In this document: positions 1,505-52,509 of the stretch, piece after piece
Position numbering within the stretch: position 1 is the first letter of the stretch
Layout of the letters: every line of letters begins with the position of its first letter
Assembly (NCBI GenBank): GCA_010909165.1
Contig: MU008191.1
Coordinates: forward strand, 124,001-188,000
Reading direction: 5' to 3'
Length of the DNA: 64,000 bases
Source of the DNA: Anthoceros angustus
Taxonomy: Eukaryota > Plantae > Anthocerotophyta
Position numbers and translations under genes: made by a program
The notes under the pieces: model-generated
The model's input: only the letters and a program-made list of their open reading frames with translations
Told to the model about the DNA's origin: nothing
Databases searched by the model: none

Positions 1505-1525
1505 TGTTGGGAGGCATGTAGCGGT

Positions 1526-1537
1526 GAGAAGGGAGTA
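1526..1537 (+). promoter_or_regulatory. Polypurine tract (GAGAAGGGAGTA) of gypsy element 1
   Basis: Purine run about 20 nt after the integrase stop and directly before TGTGGAC. Same motif in reverse at 30643-30654. Confidence 0.8.
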
Positions 1538-2140
1538 TGTGGACTACGGACTTCGGGGTTAGAAATTAGGTAGGGTTTTGTTTTTTGAGGGGAGGATAAA
1601 ATGAGGCGAAAAGGGAAATAAGCATGGGTAGCACTCCTGACGACTGAGTATACTCCGACCGAGTGAGGAACGCACTGACCTACTATGGTAGGTGCCACGG
1701 TAACGATAAGTCCGGACCCACTCCAAGACCGTGCAGGGTACGCGGAAAGTAACTTAGAGTTGAGCCGGAGCGGACCAGGCGACGCCACGCGCAACTCGAG
1801 TGGAGGACGGCATGCCGTCAGACAGAATCTGCAGGGTGTATTCACGCCGCGACGCGCGCGAAGGCCGAGTACGCGCGCGGCCGCAGTAAGCGGAGGCGGG
1901 GCGTGCAGCTGCGCGCACCGCGCTACGACATGTGGAAGAGGCGCCCCCGCCTGGGCCGTTACTCCCAAGGCGTGGGAAGGTCATCACGCAGCCTCGAGAC
2001 ACCTCGCGATCTCGCGCCCGCAACCGGCGGTATCTCGTGGACACTCACGCCTCGCGGCTCACCGCTGAGGTCGGAGAAACAACGCGCGAAGAAGGCGAAC
2101 GCGCTGCCAGCCTCCTGGCGCAACCAAGGAGGAGAAGGCG

Positions 2141-4065: not shown

Positions 4066-4244
4066 GGGGCTGAGGTGCAAAGAGCCAACCCGGACCAAGA
4101 CAAGGGGGGTAAGGAGGAGGACCTAGCGATCGAGGTCCACGGAGGTCGGAGTTTGGAGATCGGACCCCGTGTCACGGACCAGGTCCGAACCCAGGCAGGA
4201 CCCAGTAGGTCGGACTCGAAACGGACCCTTGGGTTCGACTCGGG

Positions 4245-5326: not shown

Positions 5327-6639
5327 GTTGGAGTGGCGGTCGTCGGACGCCGCCCGGTAAAACTGACGATTCGGGGAAAGGAGGGTCCGCCTCGCGGATC
5401 ATCCGATTAGGTCGCATTGTCGGGCGGGATTGGACCACCAATCCCAAGGCGGAACCGGACCTTCCAGACCGTGAAGGAGATAGGAGGAGGAAATAGGATG
5501 GTAGGCGGCGATTAGGGCATCTTGGTGGCCGTCGGCTCGGAATAGGGGTGTAATAAAGGCGCCCGGCGTAGTAGTAAAGCTGCCACAGATAAATCATCTT
5601 TCTCTTGGTGTTGATGCGCGTTCTTGCGGACCTTGTGTCTTCTTGACGTGAGTCTGAGTCATGGCGAGCACGGCGGCGGAGGATCGATCGGTCACAGTGG
5701 CCGGACCTAACGTGTTGTGGTGTGTGCGGGGTGGTGATTGGGGACCCGTGCTGCGTCGAGCGCGACCCGGTGAGCGGACGAGCGTGTGGCCGGAGGACTT
5801 GGGAGGCGTCTGGCGCCGGACGGAGGCAGTGGAGCAGCGGAGGAGGTCGGGCATGTAACCAGCGTCTTCCTTAAGGCCGATAAGTGTAGTGTGAGAGAGG
5901 TGGGCCGAGAGGTGTGAGGCGAGCGAGGCAGGCAGGCCTTGACAGGTCATAAGCGTTTGGCCATACCGGCTGCGCGGGTGTTGCAGTAGCTAGGCGTGAA
6001 CTAAGGGTGTGTGCGTTGGGGGCGGGGTGGGCGTAAAGTAAGGCGAAACGCTGAAGCCAAAGTCATGTCATTGAGACGAACTCCTTCCTACAACGACACG
6101 GATTGTGGCCGGTGGCCGTCGGCAAAAAGTCGCGCCACATATCCGACATCGAATGAAAGCACATATCCATCTTCAATCTCAATAGCCTCTCCGGTCTTCC
6201 GAGAATCTCCACCTACGGCGCCTCAATTGAATTCATCTAGTCAGAGCTTGCCATACCGGTTCGTGAGAGAATGACGCCTCAAGATGGGAGCTTGGAGAAG
6301 TTTGCTAGGGGCGGGGAATATATCCGATCTATGCAATATGACGAGCAACTTGAAGCAGGATGGCGAAGTCAAGTATCGGACTAAGAGTTGGACCCACTAT
6401 ATAATATATATATAGAGACTTTATGAAAAGAACGATATGGGAAATCCATCTACCCCGAGGCGAAAGGGAACAACCCACGACGGGGCACCAGGGGGTGTGC
6501 CCCTACACTAATCTACCCTATAACCCCCAACCGCCCCAAGATGTCGCTGTCCAAGATAGGGAAGGGCCTACTTACCATTGGTGCCGCCGATGCCCCATCT
6601 CCAGGACACGTGATCGACCTAAAGATGGCGCTGGCTAAC

Positions 6640-18928: not shown

Positions 18929-21900
18929 TGGGGCTGGGACTTTCGGCCACGGCCAGCGCGCGCACAATCCCGTGTCGTTGTAGCAAGGGGTCCGTTGCCA
19001 AGACAATGATAGGCTCCGTTTGGCACGTTTTCAACCGATTCTCACCTCAACGTAGTGACCGTATCGGACTCAAGCACGCGCGTTCGCAGTTTTACGACTA
19101 ACTACTCTTAACGTTCACCGAACAGGCCCGGCGTGGCCAAACGTTTAAGGACTCGTTCGCGTCCGTATCCTACCAGTCCGTCCCTCGTCCGTCTAGTCCG
19201 TTCTCCTCACCACTCTCACTACGCTCATCGTTCTTTGGGGGAAGAATGGGTGGGTTGCGTGGTCCGGACCTCCTTCGTCGTTCCGCCGGGCCTCTCTGTC
19301 CGGGCTCTACACACCCTCCCGGAGTTCCTCTGGCTCACGCGTTCCGGTCCGTCCAACGTCGGTCCGTTGCTGTGGAAGAGCAAGGGTCTCTGATCGTTCG
19401 CCCCTGCACACACCACCACACGTTAGGGTCCGTCACCAGGACCTTGATCAATCTCTCCGGGGTTGTCATGCACATTGTGACTCGGGACTCACGTTATAGC
19501 AACAGCGCAAGGGTCTACAAAAGCCAGTATCCACCCAAGAAAAGATGCTTTACTAGAGCAGCCGGCCCTCTTATACTCGCCCAAGGCGGCGTCTTTATTA
19601 CACTCTATTTGGTGGTGGCACATTTCGGTGTACTAACTTGCCGCCTATTTCCCCTATTCCGCCTATCTCGTTGTCGGTGGTGAGTGCTCTTAGTTAGCCT
19701 CGGTGCTCGTGGCCCAATCCCTAGCCCTGATAGCTGCGGGGCACCCAATCGGATGATCCGCGGGCCTTCCCTTCGAGACTGTCGGTTGACCGGCGGCGAC
19801 GTGATCACCAAGTCCTCCTCTCCTTCCTCTCTTGCCTCACTTGTGAGCCCTTGCTCTGCGGGTCCCCCGAGAGGTTGTTCCACCGGAGCAGGTCGGTGGT
19901 GATTTCCCCTCCCCCCTGAGTTTGGACCTCGGGGTCCAGTCTCGACTCTAGAGTCCGACCTCAGGGTCCGGCCTTACTTCTGGAGTCCGGACCTCGGGGT
20001 CTGATCTCGACTCTGGGGTCCGGACCTCAAGGTCCGGCCTTATTTCTGGAGTTCGGACCTCGGGGTCCAGTCTCAATTCCGGAGTCCTTGGACTTCTCCG
20101 CCCCGTGGACTTCCCGGGGGTCCGTCCTCCTCCACCGGACCCTCACGTTGTCCCAAGTCCTCCGGGACTTCCCCCTCTATGGCCCCCTCGGGGCCCTCCT
20201 CCCTTCCTTCCGTAGTGGGGTGCAGTGCCTCGGGGCCGGTGGGGTCCATGTCTGCTCCTCCAGTGATCCCTTCCCCCTGTCGTGGCGAGCAGCTCCCAAG
20301 GTCAGTGGCCGTCTCTCGGGCCTTCATCTCTCCTCCTCCTCCTTGACTCGTCAGGTCCGTCAATTTGATTGGGGTGACTCCACGACCTCCGGGGCCTTGA
20401 GGAGCTCCAGCGTGGTAGTAAAGTCTAAAGTCGACTTGTTGGTGCCTCCTCCACATGGGCCGAGCAGTATTCCCTCCTCGGAGGTGCTCGGTAGTTGGGC
20501 GTCTTGGCCGGCTTCTTGGCCGTCTCAGGTCGCTAGGCCCGAACTCGGGACTCTCTTGAGGCCGCCAAGGCTCTCAGGCACCTCCTGCAGCCTCTGCGGT
20601 GCTCTCGTGCTCCTCCTCTCGCCCGTTGGCTCGACCAACTTCGGCCATGGAGCTCGTTGTCCCTCTGCCGCGTCGGACCCGGACCACGCTCCTCTCGAGC
20701 CTCTCCCTCCATCCATCTTTGCTCGGAGGGCCACCATCTCCCTTCCCAGGTGGTCCGGCACCTCTGCCCGGCTCCTGGCTTCCTCCAGCTCCTTCTCCAA
20801 TTCAGCGATGTCCATCTCCTTAGTTCGCCGTCGACTCTCCTCCCCCCTCCAACAGAGCTGGAGACGCTCGATCTCTTGCTCATGGTCCATGATTCTCCCT
20901 TTGAGAATTCCATGTCGCTCCACCGTGTCTTGGAGCTGCAGCTCCAAGGTATCCCTGCGATCCTCCGACTCTGGCCCCTCCTCCGCTCCACCAGCTGTGC
21001 AGGAGATCCTCTATCTCGGCAGCCTCCTTTCTTCTTCACGGCTTGCCGTACGCTCGCCGCCACCTCGGCCTTGAGTTAGCCGCGGCTACCCTAGTCTCCC
21101 TCCACGGTTTCGGTCTCGCCGGTGGTAATTCCCGTCTTCGCCGCGGCCTCGGCCTCCCGCGCCGCCTTCACCTGAGCCTCCCAGGCTTGGTGTTGCTCCT
21201 GCCTAGCCGTCTCGGCTAGGTCCCTAGCCCTTTTCGCCTGCCTTCGGGCCTCCTCCAACTCCCTCTGAGCTACTTCCCTCTGTTTGCAAGGTCCCCGCCT
21301 TGGGCTCCTGGCTTGCTTGGTGCTGTGAGGAACTTGGTCCGATCTAGTTGAACGGATTGGGCCTCTCTCTCCGCCGCCCGGCGCTTCTCCTCCTCCATTC
21401 TCGCGAGGGACTCCGCCTTCTTCCTGGCCGCTTGGGCCGCCTCCACCTGACCCTGGAGCTCCACCATCCGTTGCCAGGTGGCCTCCACTTCGTGGGTCTT
21501 CTCCGCCGTTGGACCGCCTTCGGGTGATGTAGTGGGTCGTGGATGTCGTGGGGTCTTCTCCGCCGTGGGAACCGCAGAGACCCCAGAGCATACCGTCCAT
21601 GACAGTAGCTAGAACCGTGTCTCTTCCACGGCCACCGCTGGGGAGGCACCCAAGAAGTCCGTCGTGGGTGCGGGCATCTCTTGGTCCGTTAGGGACCGCC
21701 ATCACTGCGATCGGAGCGGTGGACCAATGTCTCCGACCCAGACCCTCGGTCACAGTGCTGGGCGGACCTTCCACTTCCTTGGCCCTTTTGGCCGCTAGCT
21801 CCTCCTCTGCCCTTCTTCGCTTGGGACTCGGAGGTGGTGAGGGGTCGTGGTAGCCCTCTTGCCTCTCCCGGTTGGGGACAAGGCAGGCTCGGGGGTGGGG

Positions 21901-23664
21901 TTCTTGCGATGTCCTCCACGCTCACAGGCGTCCCTCTGCTCTCTCAGCCTCCTCAGTTTCCTGCCACTCCATTGGCGGGAAAGAGACCGGTCTTGATCTG
22001 GCTAGTTGGCGGGGCCGTCTTCCGCCTCTTCGCTTCCGCCTAGTCGTGAGTTCGGTTCTAGAGTTGTTGTGGGGCTCTTTGATCCTGCTGGCGTCGCGAC
22101 ATGACTCCCTTCTGCCAGCGCCTCCTCCTGCGTGGGTGCTCGTGAAGGACTAAGAAGAAGGCAGGAATGTCTTCCCACACTTCCACAGGTGGCGAGGGGT
22201 CCGTTCAAGCGTGTTGGTCAGATCCCTCCCAATCGTCCTCCTCCCGGACACTTGGTCTGGCCGGACACTCTGTGTTCTTCCTTCGCTTCTGCTTGGGCGA
22301 GTCCTTCATGGCGCCGCTCTTCTTCTCCTTCCTTGAGGAGGTTCATGTGCCCCACACATGGATAATAAGCAGCGACAAGCCGGGGTGGTCTCACTCCTCA
22401 ACTTCCGGGCCTCTGGTTGATCATGGCGAATAATTCTTTTCGATCGGCCCGCTTCCCCTCTGCGGGCGTGGAGGAACACCGACAAGTTGTCACCAGGTGG
22501 TCCCACCTTGGTGAGCATGTTCCGATGGGCGATGATCTTCGCCACTGCTCGCACCCTCATCTGGGAGGTCAGCATCGACCATCCGTTGGAGGATCATTGC
22601 GTTCCCGGTCTCAAGAGGGCGCTCGGCGCGTCCACCTTCCTTTCACCTTGAGGGCTTTGGAACCACTCCCCTACTTCCTCATTTGGGCGGTTGTACCGCC
22701 TCGGGACCTCCAGTCCACCTCACAGGTCCTCCACGGAGGTTCTTGGGCGGACCTCCTTGTTGCCTTAACATCTTGGGCATACTCCGGACTAGGGGCGTTA
22801 TCAGGTCGAGGCGGCTGGAAAATATCCAGTGCGGTCTTCCGAGCTCCTCCGCCTCGCCAAGGTCCGAAGTCGGGAGTGGCGCTTGGTGCGATATTCCGTT
22901 CCACGAGCACTGGGGCTCCCCACTGCCTTCTTGGGCCCCATTGCGCTCCTCTTGCTCTCATTGTTGGGGTTGAGGCTCAACAATCCTCATCCTTTTGTCG
23001 GCTGCGTCGGTCACTCCAACCACGAGGATGAGCGCGCTGCTGGGTGCTTGAGAGACAACGCCCGAGCGTGTCTCGGCGCGAGAGGCGCAACCGTCGCAGT
23101 CGCTTGGAAGAATGACCTTCGCTCGGGCATAGCGTCGAGTAACCGGTGGCGGGCGTCTCTTGCTGCCGTGGCTTCGAGGCCTACATGGCTTACTCTAGCC
23201 TTACTGTGCGCGTGCTCTAGCCTTCTGGCCCGCGTACTCTGTATCAGTGTATCGCCAACCGCGTACTCTGGCCTTGATGGTACGCCAGCGTACTCTGGCC
23301 CCTCGCTAGCACCACATACTCGGGCGTGAATGCCTATAACGACCAGCGGCAACCCCTCGTGTCCTGCATGCACATCACCGCCGGTCGTGGCTGCACAAAA
23401 TCGCTCCCGACTCCCAAGTTACTTTACTCGTACTTATCATGCCGGGGTGTAGTCCGGACTTACCGATGTGCTCCAGAGTGCGGTATCAGCTCGGAGTGTC
23501 GTCGTGGCCGCTCACGGAGTCGATGCGGAGTCGCTGCCTACTCCAGTGTAGTCAGGAGTACTCGATATATTTCTCCCTTTCCGCCTTATTTTCTACTCCA
23601 CACCTCTGAAAAAAAGCAAAACCCTAGCTCATTACCTACCAAAGGGAAGAGTCCATAGTCCACA
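18929..23664 (-). mobile_element. Solo giant LTR (~4.7 kb) of a diverged subfamily, with the internal ORF (ATG at 22941)
   Basis: Ends match the family termini. Encodes MGPKK..VERNIA..PDFGPW and RVRAVAKIIAHRNMLTKV plus a coiled coil. No pol adjacent. Flanks GGGAT/GACAT are not a clean TSD. Confidence 0.8.
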
Positions 23665-26231: not shown

Positions 26232-29200
26232 TGTGTTTGACTTGCGATGGCCGGTAGGCGCACAATCCCGTGTCGTTGTAGGAAGAAATCCGTTCCCAAG
26301 GGAATGATAGGCTCCGTTTGCGCGTTTCGTGATTCTTACCACTAGCTCGTTCGATCTCAACACATACTCTAACTACTCAGCGTTCACCGTCTGGGCCGGT
26401 ATGGCCAAGCGTTTAGGGACCCGTTCGGCGTCCGTATCGTTCACATTCGTCACTCACACTTCGGTCCTTTCCTCTCCCTCACGCTACACTCCTCGGTCTT
26501 AGAAAAAGCAGCGGGTTACAGTCCGGACCTCCTCGTCGTTCCGGGCCTCTCGTCCAGCTCTGCCGCCCTCCGGAGTTCCTCGGCTCACACGTTCAGTCCG
26601 TTCGGTCTTTGGGGGCGGCTCCGGGCACGGGTCACCCGATCACCCTGCACACACCACAACACGTTAGGTCGTCACGGGACCACGATCAATCTCCCGGGCG
26701 CCGTGCACCTTTCGGTGACTCGGGACTCACGTTAGCAGAAGACACACAAAGGTGCAAGAGCGGCATCAACACCAAGAAAGATGATTTATTGGGCCTTAGC
26801 CCTCTTATACTCGCCGGTGGTGCCTTTATTACACCTCTATTACGGTGAGGGCCCATTTCGGTGTGCCTAACCGCCGCCTACTACGCCTATTCCACCTATC
26901 GCCGTCGGTGGTGGGTGGATAGCCCCATTCCTTCTTGGCACGGCCCAAAGCCATGTGCGGCGCTCGGATGATCCGCGGACCCTTCCTCTTCATGCAGCCG
27001 GGCTGCGCCACCGGTGGCGGCACGTGATCACCAAGTCTTCCTCGTCCTCCCTCTTCTCTCTCTGGCGGGCCCTGGGGTGGGCCCTCAATGGATCTGCTGG
27101 GGTTGGTGGTGGCTCTCCCCACTCCCAGTTTGGACCTCGGGACCTGTCTCGACTCGAGTCCGGACCTCTAGGTCAGTCTTCCCTCTGAGGTCCGGTCTCC
27201 TGGGCCCGGCCTTCTTTGAGTCGGTCCTCGGGGCCGGACTTGCCTCAGGTCGGTCTTGGACCCAACCCTTCCACAGGGTCCGGACCTCGGGGTCGGATCG
27301 TCACTGAGTGGATCCCTAAGTCAGACTTCCTTGAGGCGGACCTCGGGATCGGCCTTTCCTCGAGTCAGGACAAAGTCAGGACCTCGAACTCTGGGCATGC
27401 CTCCCGGGCTGGTCAGGTTCATCCACTGAGCCCTCCCTTGGTTCCCGAATGCCCGGTTGCTTTCCTTCCTCTCAAGATCCTCCCTCGTCCTTCCATGCGA
27501 GGGTCTTAAGTCTTACCTCGGTGTGTGCCCTTCCTCCTCCGGTTCCTCCTGCTCTCCCTCGCTGCTGCCGTCGTCAAGCAGGCTCCTAGGACTCCAGCGG
27601 TTGTCTTGTCCCGGTCCGTCCTCTCGCTCCTCCTTCCATCCCTTGAGTCCACCCTCCACTGGGGTGGCGCGGGACCTCGAGCCTTGAGGAGCTCTGCGTG
27701 GTAGTAGGCGGTCAATCGACTTTGAATCGCCTCCTCCACATGAGCACACTCCCTCCTCAGGTGCTCCGGCAGCGGATCGCCCGGCCTGCTCCCGTCTCTG
27801 GCCAAGCTTACGGTATGGTGCGGACTCCCTTGAGGCCGTCAAGGCTGCCTCCGTTACCTCTTGCAACCTTGCTTTCGGCGTTCTCCTCCTCCGTCGTTGT
27901 TGCTCACTTGATTCTGCCATGGGTGAGCTCCCTTCTGCTTCCTGTAGCTTTTCCTCCAGTGCTTTCTTCCCCCCGTCTATTCTTTCCGGAGGTCCTCCAC
28001 TTCCTTCTCCAGGCGGGCGGTATCCCGTCAGGCTCCGCCACATCCTGCTGCAACCTTGCGGCCGAACTCCTTGCAGCCTTTTCTCCTCCGTCTTCAAGCG
28101 GGCTGGGCGTTCTACCTCTCGAAGTCTTGGATTCTCTCGTTGAGAACCCCTGCTCCGTGCATCTTGGGTTGCAACTCCAAGGTGTCCTTGTTCCTCCGGC
28201 TCCTGCCGCCCTTCTACCTCCTGCAGTGCACCACAGGGTCCCCAATCTCCCGGGTGCTGGCCTCAGCCTCCTCACGGCTCGTGCTTGCTCCGACCACTTG
28301 CTCGGCCAGTTGGCGGCTCTCTCGGCCGCCTCCCTCCACGGTTCGATCACGCCGATAGTGATCGCGATCGGCCGCCGTGGCCTCCGCCTCCTTGGCCACC
28401 TTCACACAGCCTCTCCGGCTTGGCTCTGGTCGGTCAGGCTGCCTCGCAGATCCGCGCCCGTTCGCTTGCGCCGGGCGTCCTCGCTTCTGCTGCGCTCGCC
28501 CCTCACTGCGGAGGTCCTCCGCGCTTGGGCCTCCTTGGCCAGCTTTTGTTCCTCGGTGAAGGAATTTGTCCGGTCCTTGCGGATGGACGGACCTCCCTCT
28601 CCGCCTCCGGCGTTTCCTTCCTCAATCGGCCGAGCTTGGCCTTCCTTCTCGCCTCTGGGCTCCCTCCAGCTGCTCACGGAGGCACCATGCGCCTCGGGTG
28701 GCTTCCACCTCACAGGTCTTCTCGGCCATCCCTTGAGACCCCAGGCATTCCATGGGTAGCAGGAACCACCGTGTTTCCTCCACGGCGGCTGATGAGGCTC
28801 CCACAAAGTCCGTGGCGGGGCCGGCATCTCCGTCCGTCAAGGACCTCCATACTGAGGAGCAAGTCTGGGTTCTCGGACAATCGGGACCCTTAGGTCACGA
28901 GTCTTGGCTCAGCTTCCCCTCCTTGGCCCTTTTGGCGCGAGCTCCTTCTCCGCCCTTTTCCTCCACAGGGCTCGGCGGAGGTGATGGAGTCAGGGACGCC
29001 CTTTGCCCCTTCACCGGCGGGACCCGGCTCTGGATCTGTGCTGTGTCCTCCTGCTCCTCCTTCGCCTCCTTCGCTTCCTCGCTTCTTGCCACTCGTCGGC
29101 GGGGGAGAATCAGCATGGCCCAGGGTGCAGCGTTGGTAGCCGTGGTCTTGCGTCTCTTGGCTCTCTCACAGTCGGCGGGCTCCTCGGGGAGTGATGGCAG

Positions 29201-30642
29201 TGGCGGGGCTGCAGGGTGTTCTTCTGCTTGGGCTTACGGTTGGGGCACGGAAGGAGGCGGGGAATTCCCATACTGGGGTGGTGAGGGGTCCGTTCAGCGT
29301 ATGGAGTCAGGAATCCTCAGTCGTCCTCCTCCGTCCGTTTGGTTTTGACGACCGGCCTCCTCCCTCGGCGCCCTTGCCGCTCCACTTGGCGGGGCCTCGG
29401 TCCTTTCCGGGCGCTCGCTCAAGCTCTCCTTCCTTGAGGAGCTCATGCCCCATACATGGATCGGTATGGGGCGGCCCAGATGGCGAGGCTTCTCGGTCAC
29501 TGAGCTTGCGAGCCTCACAGCTAAAGGCGAAGATAATCCTTCCCGTCGCCCTCTTCCCAGCGGCAGCGTGCGGGAACACCAATAGATTATCACCAAGGTG
29601 ATCCACCTTTTGGTAGGTTCGATGGACGATGATCCGGGCCACCGCCCACTCGGCATCAGGTCGGATATCGACCAACCGTTGGTGGTCGTTGCGTCGAGCC
29701 TTAGCATCACTGTGGTGGCCTATCTTCCCCTTCGCCTTGAGGGGCTCGGCACCACTCCCCTCTTCCTCCTTGGGCGGTTGTAGGCGCCTTGGGACCTCAA
29801 GGTCCATCGCCTTGGGTCCTCCCGGAGGTTCTTGGACCGCACCTCCTTGTTGCGCCCGGCATCTTGGGCAAACTCCGGACGGTGACCTTCAAATGTCGGA
29901 CCATTTGGAACACATCCAAATGCCACTCCTGCACCAATTCTCCCGCTGAGCGAGCCCAAAGTCCGGATAGCGCGGGTCACAATGTTGCGCTCCACAAGGT
30001 TCCATGGCTCCCAAACTTCCGGGCTTTTGGGTGCCATCGCCTTCTCCTCCTTGGTTGCTGGCCGCTTGCCGAGGCTGGCGTTGCGCCTTCGCGTTGCTCT
30101 CCGACCTCAGCGGTGAGCGCGGCAGGCGTCAGTGTCCACGAGATACGCGGAGCGGTTGCGGGCGCAGATCGTGTCTCGAGGTGGCGGCCTTCTTGACCAC
30201 GCCGGGAGTAACGGCGGGCGCCTCTTCATCGTGGCGGAGTGCGCATGGCTTACTCGCCTCGCTGCAGCGTGCACGGCCTTACTGCGCGTACTCGGCCTCG
30301 CGTGCTGCAGCGCGCGGCGGCGTGAATACATATAACGGCCTCTGGCAGGTTACGGTCTGACCACTGCATGCCGTCCTCCACTCGGGTCGTCACGTGGCGT
30401 CGCCTAGTCCGTCCTTCGCCCAACTTCTAAGTTACTTTCCACGTACTTATCACCGGTCACGGGTGGGTCGGACTTATCCCGTTACCGCGCGCCATCGTAG
30501 GTCTTGCGTTCCTCACTCCGGTCGAGTATACTCCGGTCGAGTCAGTGCTAAGTGCTTATTTCCTCCTTTTCGCCTCATTTTATCCTTGCTCACAAAAACA
30601 AAACCCTACCTAATTTCTAACCCCCGAAGTCCGTAGTCCACA
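26232..30642 (-). repeat. 3' LTR (4.4 kb) with internal ORF starting at ATG 30037
   Basis: Begins TGTGGAC on the minus strand right after the PPT. Colinear with 36025-42938. Confidence 0.85.
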
Positions 30643-30675
30643 TACTCCCTTCTCACTGTTGGCGTCTCGCCAACA

Positions 30676-33600
30676 CTAAGCGTGTACTTTTCACCGCCAC
30701 CCGTTCACCAGTGGGCGGTTCACCATCCAAGCGCCGTGAGCGGACCCATTGGGGTATACTGTACGACTTGGTAAGGCCCCATCCATCGTAGGTGGAGTTT
30801 ACAGGAAGTGCATATGTCGGTATCGTAAGGAGGCGGATCTCCCTCCTTCACATACTCCCGATTCTAAAACGCTATCATGCCACGGCTTGCGTTGATTACA
30901 TACCGATTGCATTATTATTGCGCCTCTTCCGGTCCTCCGTGTCTTGTACAAACCCTAGCAACCGCTCGGTTGGCTCTCTTCATCCGTTAAGCGCCTTTCC
31001 ATCATGACCGGAGTGTTGGCACCTCAAACTCGGCCGGCATAACGGGTGAGTGCCGCCGTCGAATAATACGGAGTTCGTTGCGTGGTTACCTTCTGCCGTT
31101 ACGAGCGCCCGCCGATGGCGACTTTGTATCGATCGTGCGCATAGTTAACCGTCGCTTATTGAGGATCGGCGAGATAAGTCCATTGGTCTTCTCCGTCGAT
31201 CCGTTGGCCTTGGATTGTAGGGGCGTTTACGATGTGTGATTGCGAAATAGTCCGTCATTGCGTTATCACATCATTGAGGAAATGGGTTCCCCTATCACCG
31301 GTAGCGGACACCCATACCTTGTGATGATGTTTTCGTGAGGAATTTGGCCACCGTGCTCATGTCCGTTCGTAGCGACCTTCAACCCACAGTGCGGTGGTCC
31401 GTTGCCACCAAGATGTACCGCTTACATGTGCACGGTGGTTGGTGTATGGGTCCAGTCGATGCCCATTTCTCAAAAGGCGCTAGTGCTAGTATGGGCACTA
31501 ACGGCCATTGAGTTGTGGCCGTCGGCTTCCCGATCCGCGGACAAGCATCACACTTCTTCACAAATTGGTGTGTTTCCCCATACATGGTGGGCCACAGTAC
31601 CCAGCCTCCAAGATTTTCTTGGTGGTGACCTGTGCTGCATAATGTCCACCACCTAGTCCTTCGTGCATCCCCTTTATTACCACCTCCGTTTCCGTCTGTT
31701 GGAGGTACCTTCGTTCCACCGTCCCTTAAAGATGCACGTTATCTGATAGGAAAGGCGGCGTAGTGCACAAAGGCTGCCTGGACCCGGTTCGATTCGTTGG
31801 GTAGCTCCATCTCCCATAGGTACTTCCAACTCCGCGTAAGAGGCCGCCCCTGCGTCCTCCTTCTGCCGTGGGTCCTGTTCACCCGACTTGGGTTTGTCGG
31901 TGTGCTCCTCTACCTCCTCCTCTATCGCGCCACCAATTCCTCATCCAAGGCGTCCTCTTGATCCTGCGGGGCAGGCTCGTTTTAATGGATAAGAAGTCGG
32001 GCGTTGGTGTTGCGTCCTTGCCTAGTCTCCACCTCAAATGTGAACTCCTGTAGCAGAATCCACCTCGCAATTCGTCAGGACAAGTCGCCTTGTTCACCAA
32101 ATGCTTGGTAGTGATCAACATAGAACACAAACTCATTGGGCGGAAGGTAGTGTCCGAATTTCTTCAGTATACCATACCCAATGCCTCTCGCTCCGTAGTA
32201 GTGTACCTCCGTTCGCGTCGTGGTGTCTTCAGCGTAGTAGATTGGGTGATCCCTCGTTTATCATCTTTTGGTGAGCACTACCCGATGGCGGTGACACATC
32301 CGTACACATGGAATCGCTTCCCCGGTCAGGTCCTTTGAGTCTTGGGGCCGACAGTGGTGCGGAGGTCTCTGAATCGCCTCCCTTTACGGCGTCGGTCCAT
32401 TCCTCCTCCTTCTGAGTAGCTCTTAGCACAGGCCCGCTTTGCAAAATCTTGTATGAAAGCGATAGTAACCCATGCCGGAATCCCGTAACTCCTTCAAGTT
32501 CGTTGGTGGGCTGCAGGGTGGATGACTTTCACCTTGTCTTGGTCCACCTCTATCCCTCTTACGACACTCGGTGCCCCAACAAGATTCCTCATCATGCAGT
32601 AGCATTTCTCGGGATGCGAGCCGTTGAGTCTCCTACATCGTTCCAAACACTTCCATAATGTCCGTGTTTGTCCTCCTCTCCGTGCACCAGTCCAAGAACA
32701 CCTCCATGAAGTCCCTCGGGAATTCCGGAAGACATTGGTCACCATCCGCATAAATGATCCGGGTGCTCTGTCATCCCGCACTCCGTTTGTAGGCAAGCGT
32801 CCCCACTCCGTGGTGAATGTTGTCTTATCGGTCAGGCTCCCTTAGGTATGGCGGTTGTGGCCGATGGCCGTCAAGAAGGAGTAGGTACTCCGGCCCACCT
32901 TGTCTATGTCGTCCACAAAGGGCATGGGAAATGGTCCTTTTAGTGGCGGCGTTAAGCTTTCTCCGATCTGGACCGAATCGCCCTGCTGCTTCTTGGCCCG
33001 ACCACAATGCGCCACCCACTCCTTTGTTCACGATTGGGAAGATGATGTCGCTTCGGATACTTATCCGGACTTCCTTGACCTTGGCGAGTGCTTGGGATTG
33101 ATTTATCTTGCCTAATCCGAGGCACGCTCACGGCTTCGATCTATCCGGTGTTAGCCTTGTTTGAATGCCTTTCATATCCGTGACCTTGAAAGCAAACACC
33201 TGAATTCCCCAACAAGCTGTGAGGTCTCGTTTAACCCTCGGCATGCCCTTGCGGAATTTGAGAATTTCACAGGCGAACCTCCACGTCTTCCACATCGTCG
33301 GGTTGAGTCTCCCTTTCTCTTTGCGCTCGTCCAGCCGTCCTCCATCGGGTTCATCTTCACGCATTCCCCACTCCGAAGAGCTCGTCCAGTGAAGCAGGTT
33401 ACTTCCTCGGTTCTACTCCCGTCTCTGCTGGACCCTCCTCTTGATTGCCTTCCCGGCTCTTGTTCCGCGAGTCCACCCTAAAACAATCGATGACCTCCTC
33501 GTCCACCTCGCTCCAAAGGCGTCCTCCGGTAATCCATCTCCTCCTCGACCACGTGATTTTGGGAAAGGGTAGTCCTCATTCGTATCCTCGCGTTCATCGT

Positions 33601-35985
33601 CCCATGTCTTGGTGAGGTGTACCCTACGTGGTCTTGTGGTTTCTCACCACGTGTATGTCCTCCAGTGTCGCTACCGTCCTTCCCTCACCTTGGATCCCAG
33701 TCCGGCTTGAAGTGTATCTCCTTCCGTCCAGTGTAGTTTTGTCGGCGAGGCCAGCCGCTAGCGGACCTCATACCCGGAGTCGGGGTCGATGACAAAATCT
33801 AATGTATAGGGGCTCCGCTATGGTGGCTTGGACTCGGGACAACTCCCTGGCGCTCGCGCATGTCGCCATCCACGAGGGTTTTGGTGGATGGCTCGAAGGT
33901 GGTGAACCCGGCCGTCTTGCGGTGGCCTCGGTGATGAGGTTCACTCGACCCGTGTCTAGAGGCGTTTTAATTACACCCGCAATTTCCACACTGCTGGCGC
34001 CCGGTCGTATGAGATCGACCCTTACCTCACGTTCTTGCCCTTAGGACCAAGGGTTCCGCGTGGTTGCGTTTCACGATGGCCTTCGGACTTCACAGCCGAT
34101 ACGGGTTGTCCTTTAACAAGCGCCTAAGGGACACCAAGTGTTGTTGGTCCATCATCAAGTCGGCCACCTTGAAAGGGCGGGTGGTTCTCTGCGTCCGCGT
34201 TCGCCTTGTCTCCTCCGGTTTGGCTCTCTGTGGTGGCGGACCACTTAGGTCTGTCGGAGTTCTTCTTGAAGCATCTCGGTCACTTCCGAACCACATCCGG
34301 TGGAAGCTGCGTTGCCGTGGGTGTCCGCTTCTCAGGAGACTCCGGTGGCTTTTGGGGGTTCTTCTCTGGCGGGCTGCCGGTTTAACTCGTCCTCTTTGGC
34401 GGGTTCGGCTTCCCAGTGTTCCGTCCTCCGTATCCGTGGGACTATCCTCATTTTCTTCCTCTTGGCTCCGTTCCTTCGCTCCTTTCGGCGACTCGGGTTG
34501 ACACTTCCGGTACCTCGGTCCGCCTTCTTCTCCTTGGCGAACTTGCCCGTACCACCTCGTTCGAGCTCCTCGGTGCCTCCTCCCCTCCATGATTGTCGTC
34601 TTCAATTTATGCAGGCGCCGCCTTAGGGAGGGCGTGGTCTTGGCTCCCGGCCGGGGTTGCGTGGCTGCCGTCTCGGCGAGATTCGGACCGAGTCTTGCGC
34701 ATGTGCCCTTTGCCCACAATCTCCACGGCCGTTCAAAGTCCGTTGTATGCGGTGGGGTATGGGCCAGGCGTTGGAGTAGTGTCGGGGTTCCCAGTTCCAA
34801 CGGACCGCCGCCCGAGAATTCTGGAGGGCTCCCATGCGGTTGCATCGGAGGTGATGGATGGACCTCCGGCGGGTACATCGTCACGGGATCGTGGTCCGGT
34901 TGTGCTTCTTGCACTTGGTCATCCTCACTTTGTTCCTCGGACTCTTCCCGTAGTCGTACTCCACAGTTCACGGGTGCGGAGGGCGGTTGGCCTTGAATGC
35001 CCATGTTGGTGTGACACGCAAATGAGTCGACGTGGTGGTCGCTCACTCTTTCACACGGTTGATCGTCAACTCCTCCACCCTCTTCATTACCGTTCTAGAT
35101 CTTCCCTCGGCCGCTACTTCCTTCAAAGGCTGGGTCGAAGGACCTCTGCCGGGCATCATGACCTCCTTCTTTTCCACCCTCGACTCACCTCTTCTTCTTT
35201 TTTGCGGTTCTTCTTCTTCCTCTGCCTCCTGGATTCTTCGAGTCCTCTTCCTCTTCCTCCAAGTGCCTCGGTCTCATCATCCTCCTCGTCAGGGTTCTTC
35301 ATCTTGATTCCGATTCTTCTTTTTCTTCTTTCCTCCTGGAGGTCCTCGGCCGTCGTTGGTGCATCGATTCTTCATAGTTCTCCGCCGCCCGCCTTGCTCA
35401 CATCTTTCTGCAAGCAACGGCATGTAGCCATTGGCTTGGATAAGCCATGCGAACCACGCACTTTGCATGGTAGTGTGGGTGGGGTGCCGTCCAGTAGAAC
35501 CGTTCGATGTCGATCCCAACTTCTCCGTCTTCCTCTTTGGGTTCTCGAGTTTGGACAAGATGTAGCCTTCTTGATCGATTCGCGGAATCTTTCTGAAGGC
35601 ATCCTTCAATCTTGAAGGTTGCGGGGGCGTTACGGGTGGTCGGTATTTCCTCCGATACCAGGCCTGTCCCGAGGACCCTTGGAGCAATTTGGATTAGCTG
35701 CGTCACCTTCTCCGTTGAAGTTTGCTCGGGACAAAATCCTCCAAAGGTTTGCATCTCTCTCCTTCTTACCCAAAGAGAGAAACTTGGTCGGTTGTTGCCA
35801 TCCGATCGCAAGGGGTGAGGAACCGCCCCCGCCACACCGCTGCTGCTTCCTCCTCGATCAAACAACTCCACCACTTACAGCGGTTGTGCCTCTCGAGCTC
35901 GTCGTCTCTCACGTACTGCGCTCGGGGCTCGGCGATCCACAACGTCCGACTCTCTTAATTCCTTAACTACCTCCGTCCTCCGCAT
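30676..35985 (-). pseudogene. gag-pol (gag, protease, RT, RNase H, integrase), heavily frameshifted
   Basis: LDTG (protease), RKLNAATK, LLDG, APGSFMRMVTNVF (RT), CDAC..PFEKW, YILVATD (integrase). Same family as 1-1504. Confidence 0.88.
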
Positions 35986-36006
35986 CCGCAGCTGGGCGAT
36001 TTCATT

Positions 36007-36021
36007 CCCGCAGCGGCGCCA
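36007..36021 (-). promoter_or_regulatory. Primer binding site, tRNA-Asp type
   Basis: TGGCGCCGCTGCGGG on the minus strand, 3 nt after the LTR end CCACA. Resembles the Athila PBS TGGCGCCGTTGCCGGG. Confidence 0.8.
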
Positions 36022-38142
36022 AAATGTGGCGCGACTTTGTGATGGCCAGCGGGCGCGCACAATCCGTGTCGTTGTAGGAAGAAGTCCGTTCCCAAAGGAA
36101 TGATAGGCTCCGTTTAGCGTTTGGTGATTCCGCACTTGCGCTCGTTCGGTCTCAACACATACTCTAACTACTCTAGCGTTCACCGTCTGAGCCGGTATGG
36201 CCAAGCGTTTGAGACCCGTTCGTCCGTGTCGTTCATTCGTCACTCACACTTCGGTCCTTTCCTCTCTCCCTCACGCTACACTCCTCGGTCTTAGAAAAGG
36301 CCGCGGGTTACCGTCGGACCTCCTCGTCGTTCCGCGGGCCTCTCGTCCGGGCTCTGCGCCCTCCGGAGTTCCTCGGCTCACACGTTCGGTCCGTTCGGTC
36401 TTTGGCGCGGCTCGGGAGCAGGTCACGGTCACTTCACACACACACACACGTTAGGTCGTCACGGGACCACATCAATCTCCCGGGTATCGTGCACCTTTCG
36501 GTGACTCGGGACTCACGTTAGCAAGAAGACACACAAAGGTGCAGAGCGGCATCAACACCAAGAGAAGATGATTTATTGGGCCTTAGCCCTCTTATACTAC
36601 GGAAGGTCGGCGCCTTTATTACACCTCTATTACGGTGAGGCCACTCGGTGTGCCTAACCAGCCGCCTACTACCACACCTATTCACCTATCGCGCCGTCGG
36701 TGGTGGGTGGATAGATTCCTTCTTGGCAGGTGGCCAAAGCCGAGCCACATCGGTGCGGCGCGCAATCGGATGATCGCGGTAGGACCCCTTCCTCTTCAGT
36801 GCATGGTGCGCCACCGGTGGCGGCAGTGATCCACCAAGTCTTCCTCGTCCTCCCTCTTCTCTCTGGCGGGCCCTGCGTGGGCCCTCAAGTTGGATCTGCT
36901 GGGGTTGGTGTTGGTGGCTCTCCCCACTCCCAGTTTGGACCTCGGGACCACTGTCCGACTCAGTCCGGACCTCTAGGTCAGTCTTCCCTCAGGTCCGGTC
37001 TCCTGGCCGGCCTTCTTTGGAGTCCGGTCCTCGGGGCCGGACTTGCCTCACAGGTCGGTCTTGGACCCAACCCTTCCACAGGGTCCGGACCTCGGGGTGG
37101 ACTCGTCACTGAGTCCGGATCCCTAAGTCCGGACTTCCTTGAGGCGGACCTCGGGGTCCGGCCTTTCCTCAGTCGGACAAAGTCAGGACCCTCGTGGGCA
37201 TGCCTCCTCACGGGCTGGTCAGGTTCATCCATGAGCCCTCCCTTGGTTCCCGAATGCCCGGTTGCCCCTTCCTCTCAAGATCCTCCCTCGTCCTTCCATG
37301 CGAGGGTCCGAGTCTTACCTCGGTGGCGCCTTCCTCCTCCGGTTCCTCCTGCTCCCTCGCTTCTGCTGCCGTCGTCAAGCAGGCGCTCCTAGGACTCCAG
37401 CGGTTGTCTTGTCCCGGGTCCGTCCTCTCGCTCCTCCTTCCATCCCTTGGAGTCCACCCTCCACCTGGTGGCGCGGGACCTCAGCCTTGAGGAGCTCTGC
37501 GTGGTAGTAGCGGTCGGAATCGACAGATCGCCTCCTCACATGAGCCGGGCACCGTACTCCCTCCTCAGGTGCTCGGCAGGCGGCGCCCTGGCCGTCTCCG
37601 TGGCCAAGCTTACGGTATGGTAGGCGGACTCCCTTGAGGCCGTCAAGGCTGCCTCAGTTACCTCTTGCAACCTTCCTTCGCTCGGCGTTCTCCTCCTCCG
37701 TCGTTGTTTGACTCACGATTTGCGGGCCATGGGTGAGCTCCTTACCTTCCTGGCCGGACGAGCAATGCCTTTCCTCCAGTGCTTTCTTCCTTCTATTCTT
37801 TCCGGAGGTCCTCCACTTCCTTCTCCGGGGCGGTATCCCGTCAGGCTCACGGCTTCCGCCACATCTGCTGCAACCTTGCGGCGTCGAACTCCTTGCCGCC
37901 TATTCTCCTCCGTCTTCAAGCGGGCTGGGCGTTCACCTCTCGCTCGAAGTCTTGGATTCTCGTTGAGAACCCCTGCGCTCCGTGCATCTTGGGTTGCAAC
38001 TCCAAGGTGTCCTTGTTGTCCTCCGGCTCCTGCCGCCCTTCTACCTCCTGCAGTGCACCACAGGGTCCCCAATCTCCCGGGTCTGGCCTCATGCCTCCTC
38101 CTCGGCTTGCTCCTTGCTCGGCCCAGTTGGCCGCGGCTCTCT

Positions 38143-39170
38143 GCCGCCTCCCTCCACGGTTCGATCACGCAGGTAGTGATCGCGATCGGCCGCCTCCCTC
38201 CACCGGTTCGATCACCGATGATCGCGATCGGCTCGCCGTGGCCTCCGCCTCCTTGGCCACCTTCACAGAGCCTCTCGACGGCTCTGGTCGTCAGGCTGCC
38301 TCCGCGAGATCCGCCCGTTCCGCTTGCGCGTCCTCGCTTCTGCTGCGCTCGCCCCTGCACTGCGAGGTCCTCCGCCGCTTGGGCCTCCTTGCACCGCCGC
38401 TTCTATTCTCCTCCGTCTTCAAGCGGGGGGCGTTCCACCTCGCTCGAAGTCTTGGATTCTCGTTGAGAACCCCACTGCTCCGTGCATCTTGGGTTGCAAC
38501 TCCAAGTGTCCTTCTGTTGTCCTCCGGCTCCACGCCCTTCTACCTCCTGGTGCACCACAGGGTCCCCAATCTCCCGGGTCTGGCCTCCAGCCTCCTCACG
38601 GCTCGGCCGTGCTTGCTCCTTGACCACTTGCTCGGCCTTGAGTTGGCTGGCTCTCGGCCGCCTCCCTCCACGGTTCGATCACGCAGGTAGTGATCGCGAT
38701 CGGCCGCCTCCCTCCACCGGTTCGATCACCGATGATCGCGATCGGCTCGCCGTGGCCTCCGCCTCCTTGGCCACCTTCACAGAGCCTCTCGACGGCTCTG
38801 GTCGTCAGGCTGCCTCCGCGAGATCCGCCCGTTCCGCTTGCGCGTCCTCGCTTCTGCTGCGCTCGCCCCTGCACTGCGAGGTCCTCCGCCGCTTGGGCCT
38901 CCTTGCACCGCCGCTTCTATTCTCCTCCGTCTTCAAGCGGGGGGCGTTCCACCTCGCTCGAAGTCTTGGATTCTCGTTGAGAACCCCACTGCTCCGTGCA
39001 TCTTGGGTTGCAACTCCAAGTGTCCTTCTGTTGTCCTCCGGCTCCACGCCCTTCTACCTCCTGGTGCACCACAGGGTCCCCAATCTCCCGGGTCTGGCCT
39101 CCAGCCTCCTCACGGCTCGGCCGTGCTTGCTCCTTGACCACTTGCTCGGCCTTGAGTTGGCTGGCTCTCG
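38143..39170. repeat. 514-bp essentially exact tandem duplication
   Basis: Identical ORFs offset by 514 nt (38291/38805, 38324/38838, 38403/38917). Confidence 0.92.
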
Positions 39171-42070
39171 GCCGCCTCCCTCCACCGGTTCGATCACCGA
39201 TGATCGCGATCGGCTCGCCGTGGCCTCCGCCTCCTTGGCCACCTTCACGAGCCTCTCGACTTGGCTCTGGTCGGTCGGCTGCCTCGATCCGCGCCCGTTC
39301 CGCTTCCGCCCGGGCGTCCTACGCTTCTGCTGCGCTCGCCCTCTGCTGAGGTCCTCCGCCGCTTGGGCCTCCTTGGCACCTTGTTCCTCGGTGAAGGAAT
39401 TTAGTCCGGTCCTTGCGGATGGACGGACCTCCCTCTCCGCCTCCCGTTTTCCTTCCTCAATCCTGAGAGCTTGGCCTTCCTTCTCGCCTCCAGGCCTCCA
39501 GCTGCTCTGGAGGAGTACCATGCGCTCGGGTGGCTTCCACCTCCACAGGCCTTCTCGGCCATCCCGCCAGAGCATACCGTCCATGGCGGTAGCAGGACCC
39601 GCCGTGTTTCCTTCCACGGCCCTGATGAGGCTCCCACAAAGTCCGTGGCGGGGCCGGCATCTCCGCGTCAGGACCTCCACCATGATCCGGAGCAAGTCGG
39701 TGGGTTCTCGGACAATCGGGACCCTTAGGTCACGAGTCTTGGCTCGGGCTTCCCCTCCTTGGCCCTTTTGCGCGAGCTCCTTCTCGCCCTTTTCCTCCAC
39801 GGGGCTCGGCGGAGGTGATGGAGTCAGAGCCTTTGCCCCTTCACTGTCGGCGGCAGGACCCGGCTGATCTTGCCGGTGTCCTCCACTCCTGGCGGCGTCC
39901 TTTACGCCCTCCTTGCTTCCTCGCTTCTTGCCACTCCGTCGGCGGGGAAGAATCTTGCACCGGCCCAGGGGTGCAGCGTTGGTAGCCGTGGTCTTGCGTC
40001 TCTTGGCTCTCTCACAGTCCGGGGCTCCTCGGTAGGAGTGATGGCGGTGGCGGGGCTGGGGTCAGGCTTCTGTGGGTGCTCGGTTGGGGCACGGAAGGAG
40101 GAGGCGGGTGCTTCCCATACTTCCACAGGTGGTGAGGGGTCCGTTCAGGGCGTATGGGTCAGGAATCCTCGATCGTCCTCCTCCGAGTCCGTTTGGTTTT
40201 TCGGCGACCGGCCTCCTCCTCCGGCCCTTGCCGCTCCACTTCGGAGCCTCGGTCCTTTCCGGGCGCTCGCTCAAGCTCTCCTTCCTTGAGCTCAAATGCC
40301 CCCATACATGGATCGGTATGGGGCGGCCCAGAATGGCGAGGCTTCTCGGTCCGAGCTTGCGAGCCTCTGGCTAAACCGGGCGAAGATAATCCTTCCCAGT
40401 CCGCCCTCTTCCCAGCTGCGCGTGCGGGAACACCAATAGATTATCACCAAGGTGATCCACCTTGGTAGTAGGTTCGATGGACGATGATCCGGGCCACCGC
40501 CCGACTCATTGTCAGCAGTCGGATATCGACCAACCGTTGGTGGTCCGTTGCGTCGAGCCTTAGCATCGGCTCTTTGGCCTATCTTCCCTTCGCCTTGAGG
40601 GGCTCGGCACCACTCCCCTCTTCCTCCTTGGGCGGTTGTAGGCCGCCTCCCTCCACCGGTTCGATCACGGGATAGTGATCGCGATCGGCCGTGGCCTCGC
40701 CTCCTTGGCCACCTTCACGAGCCTCTCGGCTCTGGTCGTCAGCCTCGCGAGATCCGCCCGTTCGCGCCGGGCGTCCTCGCTTCCTGCTGCGCTCGCCCTC
40801 CTGCGGAGGTCCTCGCCGCCCGGGCCTCCTTGGCCCCTGTTCCTCCGGTGAAGGAATTTAGTCCGGTCCTTGCGGATGGACGGACCTCCCTCTCGCCTCC
40901 GGCGTTTTCCCTCAATCGGAGCTTGCCTTCCTTCGCCTCCACAGGCTCCCTCCAGCTCAAGGAGTACCATGCGCCTCGGGTGGCTTCCTCCAGGTCTTCG
41001 GCCATCCATGCGGACCCCGAGCATACCGTCCATGGCGGTGGCAGGACCGCCGTGTTTCTCCACGGCGGCTGCTGTGAGGCTCCCACAAAGTCCGTGGCGG
41101 GCATCTCACGGTCCGTCAAGGACCTCCATACCCTTGATCAGCAAGTCGGTGGGTTCTCCGGACAATCGGGACCCTTAGGTCACGAGTCTTGGCTCGGAGC
41201 TTCCCCTCCTTGGCCCTTTTGGCGCGAGCTCCTTCTCGCCCTTTTCCTCACAGGGCTCGGCGGAGGTGATGGAGTCAGGAGCACGCCCTTTGCCCCTTCA
41301 CATCGGCGGCAGGACCGGCTCTGGATGCGTGCTGCGGTGTCCTCCTGCTCCACAGGCGTCCCTTTACGCCCTCCTTGCTTCCTCACTTCTTGCCACTCCG
41401 TCGGCGGGGAAGAATCTTGTGCCAGGGGTGCGTTGGTAGCCGTGGTCTTGCGTCTCTTGGCTCTCTCACAGTCGGCGGGGCTCCTCGGGGAGTGATGGCG
41501 TGGCCTGGGGTCAGGCTTCTGTGGGCCCTGGTTGGGGCACGAGGAGGAGGCGGGTGCTTCCACAGGTGGTGAGGGGTCCGTTCAGGGCGTATGGAGTCAG
41601 GAATCCTCGGTCGTCCTCCTCCGAGTCCGTTTGGTTTTCGGACGCCTCCTCCCTCGGCGCCCTTGCCGCTCCACTTCGGCGGGGCCTCGGTCCTTTCCGG
41701 GCGCTCGCTCAAGCTCTCCTTCCTTGAGGAGCTCGAAATGCCCCCATACATGGATCGGTATGGGGCGGCCCAGATGGCGCTTCTCGGTCTGAGCTTGCGA
41801 GCCTCTGGCTAAGCGGCGAAGATAATCCTTCCCAGTCGCCCTCTTCCCAGCTGCGGTGCGGGAACACCAATAGATTATCACCAAGGTGATCCACCTTGGT
41901 GAGTAGGTTCGATGGACAATGATCCGGGCCACCGCCTACTCGGTCAGCAGGTCGGATATCGACCAACGTTGGTGGTCGTTGCGTCGAGCCTTAGCGCCGC
42001 TTTGGCTGGCCTATCTTCCCTTCGCCTTGAGGGGCTCGGCACTCCCCTCTTCCTCCTTGGGCGGTTGTAG
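39171..42070. repeat. ~1.45-kb imperfect tandem duplication (39171-40640 and 40641-42070)
   Basis: Same landmark sequences repeated, e.g. GATTATCACCAAGGTGATCCACC at about 40439 and 41873. Confidence 0.85.
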
Positions 42071-42938
42071 GCGCCTCGGGACCTCAAGGTCCATCGCCTT
42101 GGGTCCTCCGGAGGTTCTTGGACCGCACCTCCTTATTGACCGCCCGGCATCTTGGGCAAACTCCGGACGGTGACATCAAATGTCGGACCATTTGGAACAC
42201 ATCCAAATGCCACTCCTGCACCAATTCTCCCGCTTCACGGGCGAGCCCAAAGTCCGGATAGCGCGGGTCACAATGTTGCGCTCCACAAGGTTCCATGGCT
42301 CCCAAACTTCGCGGGCTTTTGGGTGCCATCGCCTTCTCCTCCTTGGTTCATGGCGCTTGTGAGGCTAGCGGCACGTTGCGCCTTCTTGGCGCGTTGGCTC
42401 CGACCTCAGCGGTGAGCGCGCGAGCGTCGTGTCCACGAGATACCGCGGAGCGGTTGCGGGCGCGAGATCGCGTGTCTCGGTGCCGCGACCTTCTTCCGCG
42501 ACCACGCCTTGGGAGTAACGGCGGGCGCCTCTTCCACATCATGGCCGTGCGCGCACTGGCCCTGCTGCCGCGTACTCCTCGCGCGTACTGCGGCCTTCGC
42601 GCGCGTGCCACGGCCCCTCGCGCGGCGACGTGAATACTGCTATAACGGCCTCACGGCAAGGTTACGGTCGACCCTGCATGCCGTCCTCCACTCGGTCGTC
42701 ACGTGGCGTCGCCTGGTCAGTCCTTACGCCCAACTTCTAAGTTACTTTCCTGGCGTACTTATCACCTGGTCACAGTGGGTCGGACTTACCCGTTGCCGTC
42801 GCACGTTCCTCACTCCGGTCGGTATACTCCAGTGCCGTCCGAGTGCTAACCGTGCTTATTTCCTCCTTTTTCGCCTCATTTTATCCTTCGCTCCACAAAA
42901 AAACAAAATCCTACCTAATTTTCTTGAAGTCAGTCCAC

Positions 42939-52200: not shown

Positions 52201-52509
52201 CGGCTGCTGCGCATGCCGTCTTCCATTCGAGGCCATCCACGTGGTGCGCCTGTCTAACTCACGCCCCAACTTCTAAATTACCTTACTAGGCGCTTATCCC
52301 ATTCGACCGGAGGGTCCGGACTTATCCGATACTCGGTCGTGGTCCGGGGTCCCGGAGTGCGGGGTCCGTTACCGAGTCAGTGCACTCGGATTGTGCTCGG
52401 TGCCGTCGTCTTATTCCTCCTTTTCCGTCTCATTTTACACTCCATTCCTACGAAAAAAAAAAAACAAACCCCGCTTATTTCCCAACCCAAGGGGAGTCCG
52501 TTGTCCACA
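49243..52509 (-). mobile_element. Solo giant LTR, third subfamily, with perfect TSD CAGAG; internally rearranged; ORF ATG at 51859
   Basis: CAGAG|TGTGGCGG...GTCCACA|CAGAG. Encodes MGPKKAAEVCEPWCLVERNIVTKRYPDFGPW..KEWHLDVF and RVRAMARIIVHRNMLTKVDHLGDN. Confidence 0.92.

Follow-up and report, generated by a model that had tools for sequence, protein, structure and literature searches.

A 64,000-nucleotide stretch of the Anthoceros angustus genome (Anthocerotophyta; assembly GCA_010909165.1, contig MU008191.1, forward-strand positions 124,001 to 188,000), here called the window, contains an Athila-like gypsy retrotransposon whose long terminal repeats (LTRs) hold an open reading frame (ORF). The polypurine tract (PPT) of the element lies directly behind integrase, the LTR-resident ORF is kept in solo LTRs, and its product is predicted to be a VANC-like anti-silencing protein; taken as a whole, we consider this explanation moderately probable. 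We are highly confident that the long repeats with the ORF are real LTRs and that the ORF lies within them, while an anti-silencing role of the protein, suggested by structure prediction, is proposed tentatively. The layout is an unusual variant of Athila-like elements and is seen also in independent assemblies. Beyond the original prediction for this DNA, which had proposed an accessory gene in the LTR, our analysis adds a sequencing-error problem, a switch of PPT and a likely protein family.

The five related copies listed in that prediction were all recovered, at the same coordinates, by self-comparison of the window. Copies A, B, C and D read on the minus strand and copy E (1538-6139) on the plus strand. 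A full element consists of an internal part (30643-36024) flanked by LTRs A (5') and B (3'), and the end of a second element adjoins copy E:

36025..42938, minus strand: 5' LTR, copy A, 6914 nt, lengthened by tandem duplications within its ORF region
36006..36021, minus strand: primer-binding site (PBS), 3 nt past the LTR end, of tRNA-Asp type by likeness to relatives
30676..36005, minus strand: internal region, between the PBS and the pre-LTR module
33021-30699, minus strand: reverse transcriptase (RT)-RNase H-integrase, with the integrase stop TAG at 30678-30676
30643..30675, minus strand: pre-LTR cis module with the PPT (30654-30645)
26232..30642, minus strand: 3' LTR, copy B, 4411 nt
18929..23664, minus strand: solo-like LTR, copy C, 4736 nt, collinear with copy B throughout at ~63% identity, ORF from 22941
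49243..52509, minus strand: solo LTR, copy D, 3267 nt, with a perfect target-site duplication (TSD)
1538..6139, plus strand: 3' LTR, copy E, of the second element, 4602 nt, mosaic, ORF from 2141
1..1537, plus strand: RNase H-integrase end of the second element, with its PPT, adjoining copy E

The junctions of the LTRs with the internal region agree with the original prediction at both ends. The PPT of the full element lies 21 nt past the integrase stop and is followed by TGTGG at 30642, so that 33 nt make up the whole gap between pol and LTR; an identical integrase-PPT-TGTGG junction stands directly before copy E at 1538. At its other end, copy A closes with CCACA at 36025, followed by TTT and then by the PBS, TGGCGCCGCTGCGGGA. 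This motif, which we take to be of tRNA-Asp type, is near-identical in the metagenome relatives L001 and L004 described below; the 64-kb window holds no tRNA gene against which it could be matched. The element thus has the order RT-RNase H-integrase between direct repeats, with PBS and PPT, that defines Ty3/gypsy elements. In the frameshifted 5' internal region, neither gag nor protease gives a profile match and both are presumed to be encoded there; gag is present in L001 and L004. There is no space for an additional RNase H between RNase H and integrase or past integrase (the protease-RT interval is unreadable), and none is listed for proteins P0001-P0008 or locus L004. The label 'Athila-like' is a fair one for the element.

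LTR length ranges from 3267 to 6914 nt, which is wider than the 4.4-4.7 kb originally given, and the 4.6-kb length of copy E is coincidental, because this copy is a mosaic with a foreign middle: its 5' end is 79% like copy B, its 3' end is 65-68% like all copies, and a 1.1-kb foreign repeat lies inside. The same dispersed repeat occurs at 4245-5326, within LTR copy E, and at 7698-8792, with zero substitutions between the copies, no visible TSD and a 29-nt tandem near one end. The prediction that all five copies share both termini holds for the relatedness of the ends, with TG at the start of four copies and CA at the end of all five, and fails in detail, since copy B ends ACACA, copy C ends CCCCA and copy A (42938) lacks the first T.

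A true LTR of 0.6-0.9 kb with an internal ORF, the long units being tandem or recombined fragments or an assembly artefact, is the most direct challenge to this layout. It gains from an error-rich assembly, from the duplications in copy A and the mosaic structure of copy E, and from L001 and probably L005, in which the ORF is internal. The TSDs also weigh against the long LTRs, as only one of three testable insertions has a perfect one: copy D is flanked by CTCTG/CTCTG (chance ~0.001), copy C matches at three of five positions (chance ~0.11), the TSD of the full element is indistinct, and copy E has no testable flanks. However, the start of copies A, C and D coincides with the post-PPT base; the DNA before them is unrelated and, over 1.5 kb, contains no pol sequence, and neither a PBS nor gag-side sequence follows copies B, C, D and E. 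Copy B is covered end to end by copy A, whose additional 2.5 kb are tandem duplications within the ORF region. A PPT with TG near the 3' part, as expected for a short LTR, is absent from A, C and D, while B and E each have a single weak candidate, and independent assemblies of the relatives L003 and L004 have the order seen here. What the sole perfect TSD encloses is a long unit rather than a ~600-bp repeat, and at both window junctions, as in three relatives with accurate assemblies, the PPT comes before the ORF; the opposite outcomes had been named beforehand as evidence against the proposal. We regard the short-LTR alternative as highly improbable. The junctions and the TSD of copy D bear out the proposal of an accessory ORF that resides in the LTR and is kept in solo LTRs. 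The tandem duplications of the 5' LTR (37895-42077), which are found in that LTR only, may stem from recombination or misassembly.

Each copy has an ATG followed by (A/G)PK at LTR nucleotide 606 (B), 610 (A), 724 (C), 651 (D) or 604 (E). A sense ORF starting about 600-720 nt into each copy had been predicted, and its position is confirmed in five of five copies, while an unbroken reading frame is found in none. The best-resolved frames are the following:

27513..30037, minus strand: U3 ORF of copy B, ~840 codons, many indels, 3' end approximate
~30037-29480, minus strand: N-terminal globular domain of the copy B ORF, followed by a low-complexity linker and a charged coiled-coil-like part
37315..42329, minus strand: broken U3 ORF of copy A, in which segments are duplicated
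51859 to ~51320, minus strand: U3 ORF of copy D, of which only the first ~540 nt are kept, followed by ~1 kb of unrelated DNA

Coding constraint was measured between subfamilies that differ by 30-35%. A frameshift-tolerant codon alignment scores higher in sense than in antisense for each of the six ORF comparisons and meets no sense stops there, while the same alignment of the flanks meets one or two stops in each of six comparisons. As a control, every comparison was set against 25 neutral re-deals. The sense-minus-antisense score exceeds all 25 for each of three N-domain pairs and for the linker; it is reached by one re-deal for the second coil part and by three for the first. Sense stop triplets are reduced to 0.75-0.77 of expectation in four of the five ORF copies (0.99 in the short piece of copy D), compared with 0.92-1.26 in the flanks and 0.81 in the pol control. 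Several observations weigh against a constrained ORF. No window copy is unbroken, the first coil segment shows no constraint in the re-deal test, and one of the two flank controls is reached by none of 25 re-deals on the sense-minus-antisense score, but by 4 of 25 on the sense score. Mismatch periodicity is clear in just one of seven ORF comparisons, a test that the pol control failed likewise. Our data provide good evidence for coding constraint in the 5' half of the ORF and weak evidence for it in the coil part.

The breaks in the ORF and in pol look like long-read errors. Copies A and B differ by 2.8-3.9% substitutions, yet carry 1.8-2.3 indels per substitution; an unrelated pair, the 1.1-kb repeats, differs by 16 indels and no substitutions; and alignment of the pol region requires 46 deletions, 10 insertions and one stop. 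Contigs from one DNA run cover 30 of 30 bins and restore letters in 8 of the 12 indel rows among those listed; they derive from many copies and are not counted as proof of assembly errors. Because of this error pattern, neither intactness nor decay of the U3 ORF can be judged from the window. The ORF might be a decayed passenger, captured once and since released from selection: in this assembly no copy is unbroken, much of the ORF is gone from D and E, constraint on the coil part is weak, and the window ORF has no protein database match. Constraint between subfamilies 30-35% apart speaks against such decay, as do the resemblance of the breaks in pol and in the repeat pair to read errors and the unbroken 606-codon ORF that L003 keeps at the same position. 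We consider decay very unlikely.

The distal part of the LTR contains putative regulatory features, as follows:

27158..27286, minus strand: short repeats with the palindrome RGTCCGGACY, between the ORF and the TATA-like box
19924-20087: copy C counterpart, a 33-nt array in which the same palindrome repeats
26785..26830, minus strand: AATAAA-TATAAG-AATAAA cluster, ~580 nt from the LTR end

The cluster is present in four of five copies (copy E lacks the TATA-like box there) and likely marks the U3/R boundary. From the position of this TATA-like box, ~580 nt before the LTR end, we infer that the ORF lies in U3. Matches to RGTCCGGACY number 34 over both strands, against 4.9 expected, and every one falls within this LTR family; the palindrome is a candidate target motif, picked post hoc from homologous copies. 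The window copies have no clear promoter of the ORF's own. Relative L003 has a TATA-like stretch between LTR start and ORF, and thus such a promoter is plausible. A conserved G-rich tract (~27105-27126, minus strand), also present in A and D, lies ~900 nt before the LTR end with no TG after it; it could be a relic of a downstream PPT.

A metagenome scan with the pol alignment gave 531 matches, of which 80 were kept, and 38 of these 80 loci extend at least 700 nt beyond integrase. The five closest of the 80 (L001-L005) all have a sense ORF 3' of integrase; that of L002 stops after 190 codons, and that of L003 is unbroken over 606 codons at the position of the window ORF. The RT-RNase H-integrase of the window matches Riccia sorocarpa proteins (58-67% over the best segment) and shares a C-terminal motif with them. 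In a pol tree of 33 sequences (26 selected from the 80 loci, five proteins and two window copies), the window groups with the Riccia proteins and L001-L004 at a support of 1.00; L005 is also placed with it, and loci with strong (seed-plant-type) PF20167 matches fall in a separate clade.

These relatives display two arrangements. L001 and L005 have, past the ORF, a 50-nt module that closes with PPT and TGT. When scanned for, this module scores highest immediately past integrase in the window element (72, against a mean of 40 with a standard deviation of 6 and a next-best score of 65), in L003 (97) and in L004 (102). Behind the ORF it does not score highest in the window element or in the 215 nt of contig available for L003; the contig of L004 does not extend there. 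L002 has a PPT and TGTGG 26 nt past the integrase stop. In L004, the 9 bp that follow the PPT recur in exact inverted form at the LTR end ahead of the PBS, with a 5-nt spacer. A spacer of this kind is reported for Diaspora and Calypso (PMC1142308; the papers cited here and below were accessible in part, and statements attributed to them refer to those parts). L001 has a second PPT-like tract past integrase, which is not followed by TG, and its layout is likely an intermediate state. The contig (L001, 3717-7590) is a circularly permuted element in which two PPT-like tracts enclose the ORF, and its LTR is roughly 1 kb long. In L005 the ORF is probably internal.

We consider it likely that the PPT-before-ORF layout arose by a switch of PPT. 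Because both states occur within one clade, they are most simply connected if priming moved from the downstream tract to the upstream one. The direction of the switch is suggested by the internal ORF of L005 and by described Athila elements, and not by a rooted test. Counting against a switch, the integrase junction ranks second in copy E (58) and is tied in L002 (56) in the module scan, and L001 is a collapsed circular contig whose LTR start is hence deduced indirectly.

Plus-strand priming at the PPT sets the LTR start, and recombination between LTRs leaves a solo LTR. In the ancestor of the window element, as in L001 today, a PPT-like tract would have flanked the ORF on either side, and plus-strand priming would have moved to the upstream, integrase-side PPT. 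Everything past that PPT would then become LTR, reverse transcription would copy the ORF to both ends, and recombination would leave it behind in solo LTRs. Transcripts of the ORF would start at a promoter within the first 600 nt of the LTR, or arise by splicing, and would terminate at the LTR poly(A) site. Its protein, predicted to bind DNA, could counter host silencing and act in trans from solo LTRs.

The family to which this protein belongs has to be approached through the relatives. Fragments of the window ORF found no relatives in Pfam, a word-based protein search, a phage tblastn search or the metagenome scan. A full HMMER scan returned five matches, among them P0009 and P0012, which are unrelated tandem-repeat proteins, and the Atlas score of a window fragment was at most 0.84, to unnamed bacterial clusters. 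The N-domains of the relatives align well among themselves, and a profile of them, run over the window with tolerance for frameshifts, places all six N-domain copies within the top 10 places, with a summed score of 113.7 against a null of 79.0 (standard deviation 4.5). This link is weakened by several results: three of the four top places are off target, a wider eight-sequence profile scores 88.9 against a null maximum of 87.6, local scoring gives z of 0.8-4.2 per copy and glocal sums give z of 3.0, 2.0 and 4.1, hhalign of ORF fragments gives E of 0.004-0.4, and copies A, B and E do not count as independent in these statistics. Judged from the profile scores, homology of the window ORF to the Athila-type 3' ORF family of the relatives is likely.

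Among the relatives, the domain of L003 gives PF20167 in 23 of 30 Atlas matches (0.91, 160 shared features), along with one PF03078 cluster. L005 matches PF20167 at E 2.5e-4 and 21 bits, where the cut-off is 45, and in the Pfam scan L001-L004 and the window fragments gave no PF20167 or PF03078 match. A relationship between PF20167 and the Athila ORF has been described (PMC11728184). The structure model of the L003 domain (predicted local distance difference test, pLDDT, 82.5) has as its best match among 48,161 chains DNA-bound VANC21, with a Z-score of 6.7, a root-mean-square deviation of 4.5 and 188 aligned residues at 12% identity; the next match has a Z-score of 2.3, and the alignment spans nearly the whole domain. 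A Z-score below 8 may reflect a common fold arrangement, and the match is that of a relative's protein rather than of the window ORF. A Foldseek search of the L003 model against PDB and viral models gave no match, which also counts against the assignment, and neither its VIA second look nor a PDB sequence search gave any. Because of the gap in Z-score and the coverage, the VANC21 match is worth keeping as a lead to a VANC-like fold of the relatives' domain.

With the layout as described, the protein could also serve the particle or its RNA, in export, packaging or tethering of integration, as an ordinary Athila 3' ORF product. DNA binding is suggested by one middling fold match, what sense 3' ORFs do is reported to be unclear (PMC7264820), and the coiled coils of proteins with Athila domains have been modelled as oligomers (PMC13547354). 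Set against this are the nature of the one clear match, a transposon-encoded DNA-binding anti-silencing protein, and the repeated short motifs beside the promoter, which resemble VANC targets (PMC5735166). A particle or RNA role appears unlikely to us. For the preferred anti-silencing role, VANC21 of VANDAL21 and the PMD proteins MAIN and MAIL1 offer a parallel in the predicted fold of the relative's domain and in the combination of a globular domain with a coiled coil. PMD and VANC DUF1985 are reported to be structurally alike, with PMD-A encoded by a retrotransposon (PMC13547354, bioRxiv 2024.09.27.615353), and VANC proteins remove methylation and bind to short, tandemly repeated motifs (PMC5735166). 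VANC proteins are, however, encoded by Mutator-like DNA transposons.

The window element resembles the Athila clade (Athila4, Calypso, Bagy-2) in that no extra RNase H is seen, in a putative Asp-type PBS, in a sense ORF 3' of pol and, in its relatives, in a PF20167/PF03078-like domain. Tat Z clades are likewise without an additional RNase H (PMC10508981). Athila4 and Calypso are reported to have an extra PPT (PMC2829016), and described Athila 3' ORFs sit between pol and the 3' LTR (PMC7264820). Unlike these, the window element has its PPT before the ORF and no internal 3' ORF upstream of the PPT. Diaspora of soybean is of the Athila lineage and has a tRNA-Asp PBS, the putative type of the window element, together with a PPT close behind pol (128 bp) and a long LTR, but its description, in the accessible part, reports no extra coding region, whereas the long LTR of the window element is coding (PMC1142308). 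The Diaspora LTR may merit a check for ORF remnants. Retrosat2 and Ogre also have LTRs of 3-5 kb, the content of which is described as regulatory and not coding; the literature places extra ORFs internally and notes LTRs of up to ~5 kb (PMC7264820, PMC3485330, PMC6317226). The sag gene of mouse mammary tumour virus lies mostly in U3, is kept in solo LTRs and has several promoters (PMC4667437); it encodes an unrelated protein of a vertebrate retrovirus, and the parallel is one of layout only. In the openly accessible literature, supplements aside, we found no description of an LTR-resident ORF in plant elements or of a structural link between Athila and VANC.

Plant LTRs are regarded as non-coding, and the formation of solo LTRs as a way for the host to delete element genes. 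A gene in U3 doubles with each insertion and outlasts solo-LTR deletion, and families of this kind would be overlooked or misannotated by LTR finders with short length limits and by ORF surveys confined to the region between LTRs. Both states, with a simple route between them, are seen among the relatives, and the fold lead offers a testable function for Athila-type 3' ORFs. A wider and rather doubtful possibility is that a lineage in seed-free plants moved a VANC-like gene to U3 by a PPT switch, that its solo LTRs act as cassettes of gene and target motif for unsilencing in trans, and that the 'env-like' Transposase_32/ATHILA ORFs of Athila elements would encode DNA-binding anti-silencing proteins and not envelopes.

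Outside the LTR family, the window contains an unbroken 1172-codon pentatricopeptide repeat (PPR) gene (56145-59663, minus strand) with an E motif, of the type used in organellar RNA editing, and a short PPR-coding piece (15556-16038, minus strand). The E-type PPR gene marks the host as a land plant, and the relatives of pol suggest a seed-free one. An ammonium transporter gene (9918-12006, minus strand) is split over two frames, as a pseudogene or through assembly error. Pieces of deoxyhypusine synthase lie at 17265-17962 (minus strand) and at 63344-64000, the second copy being ~94% identical and in opposite orientation.

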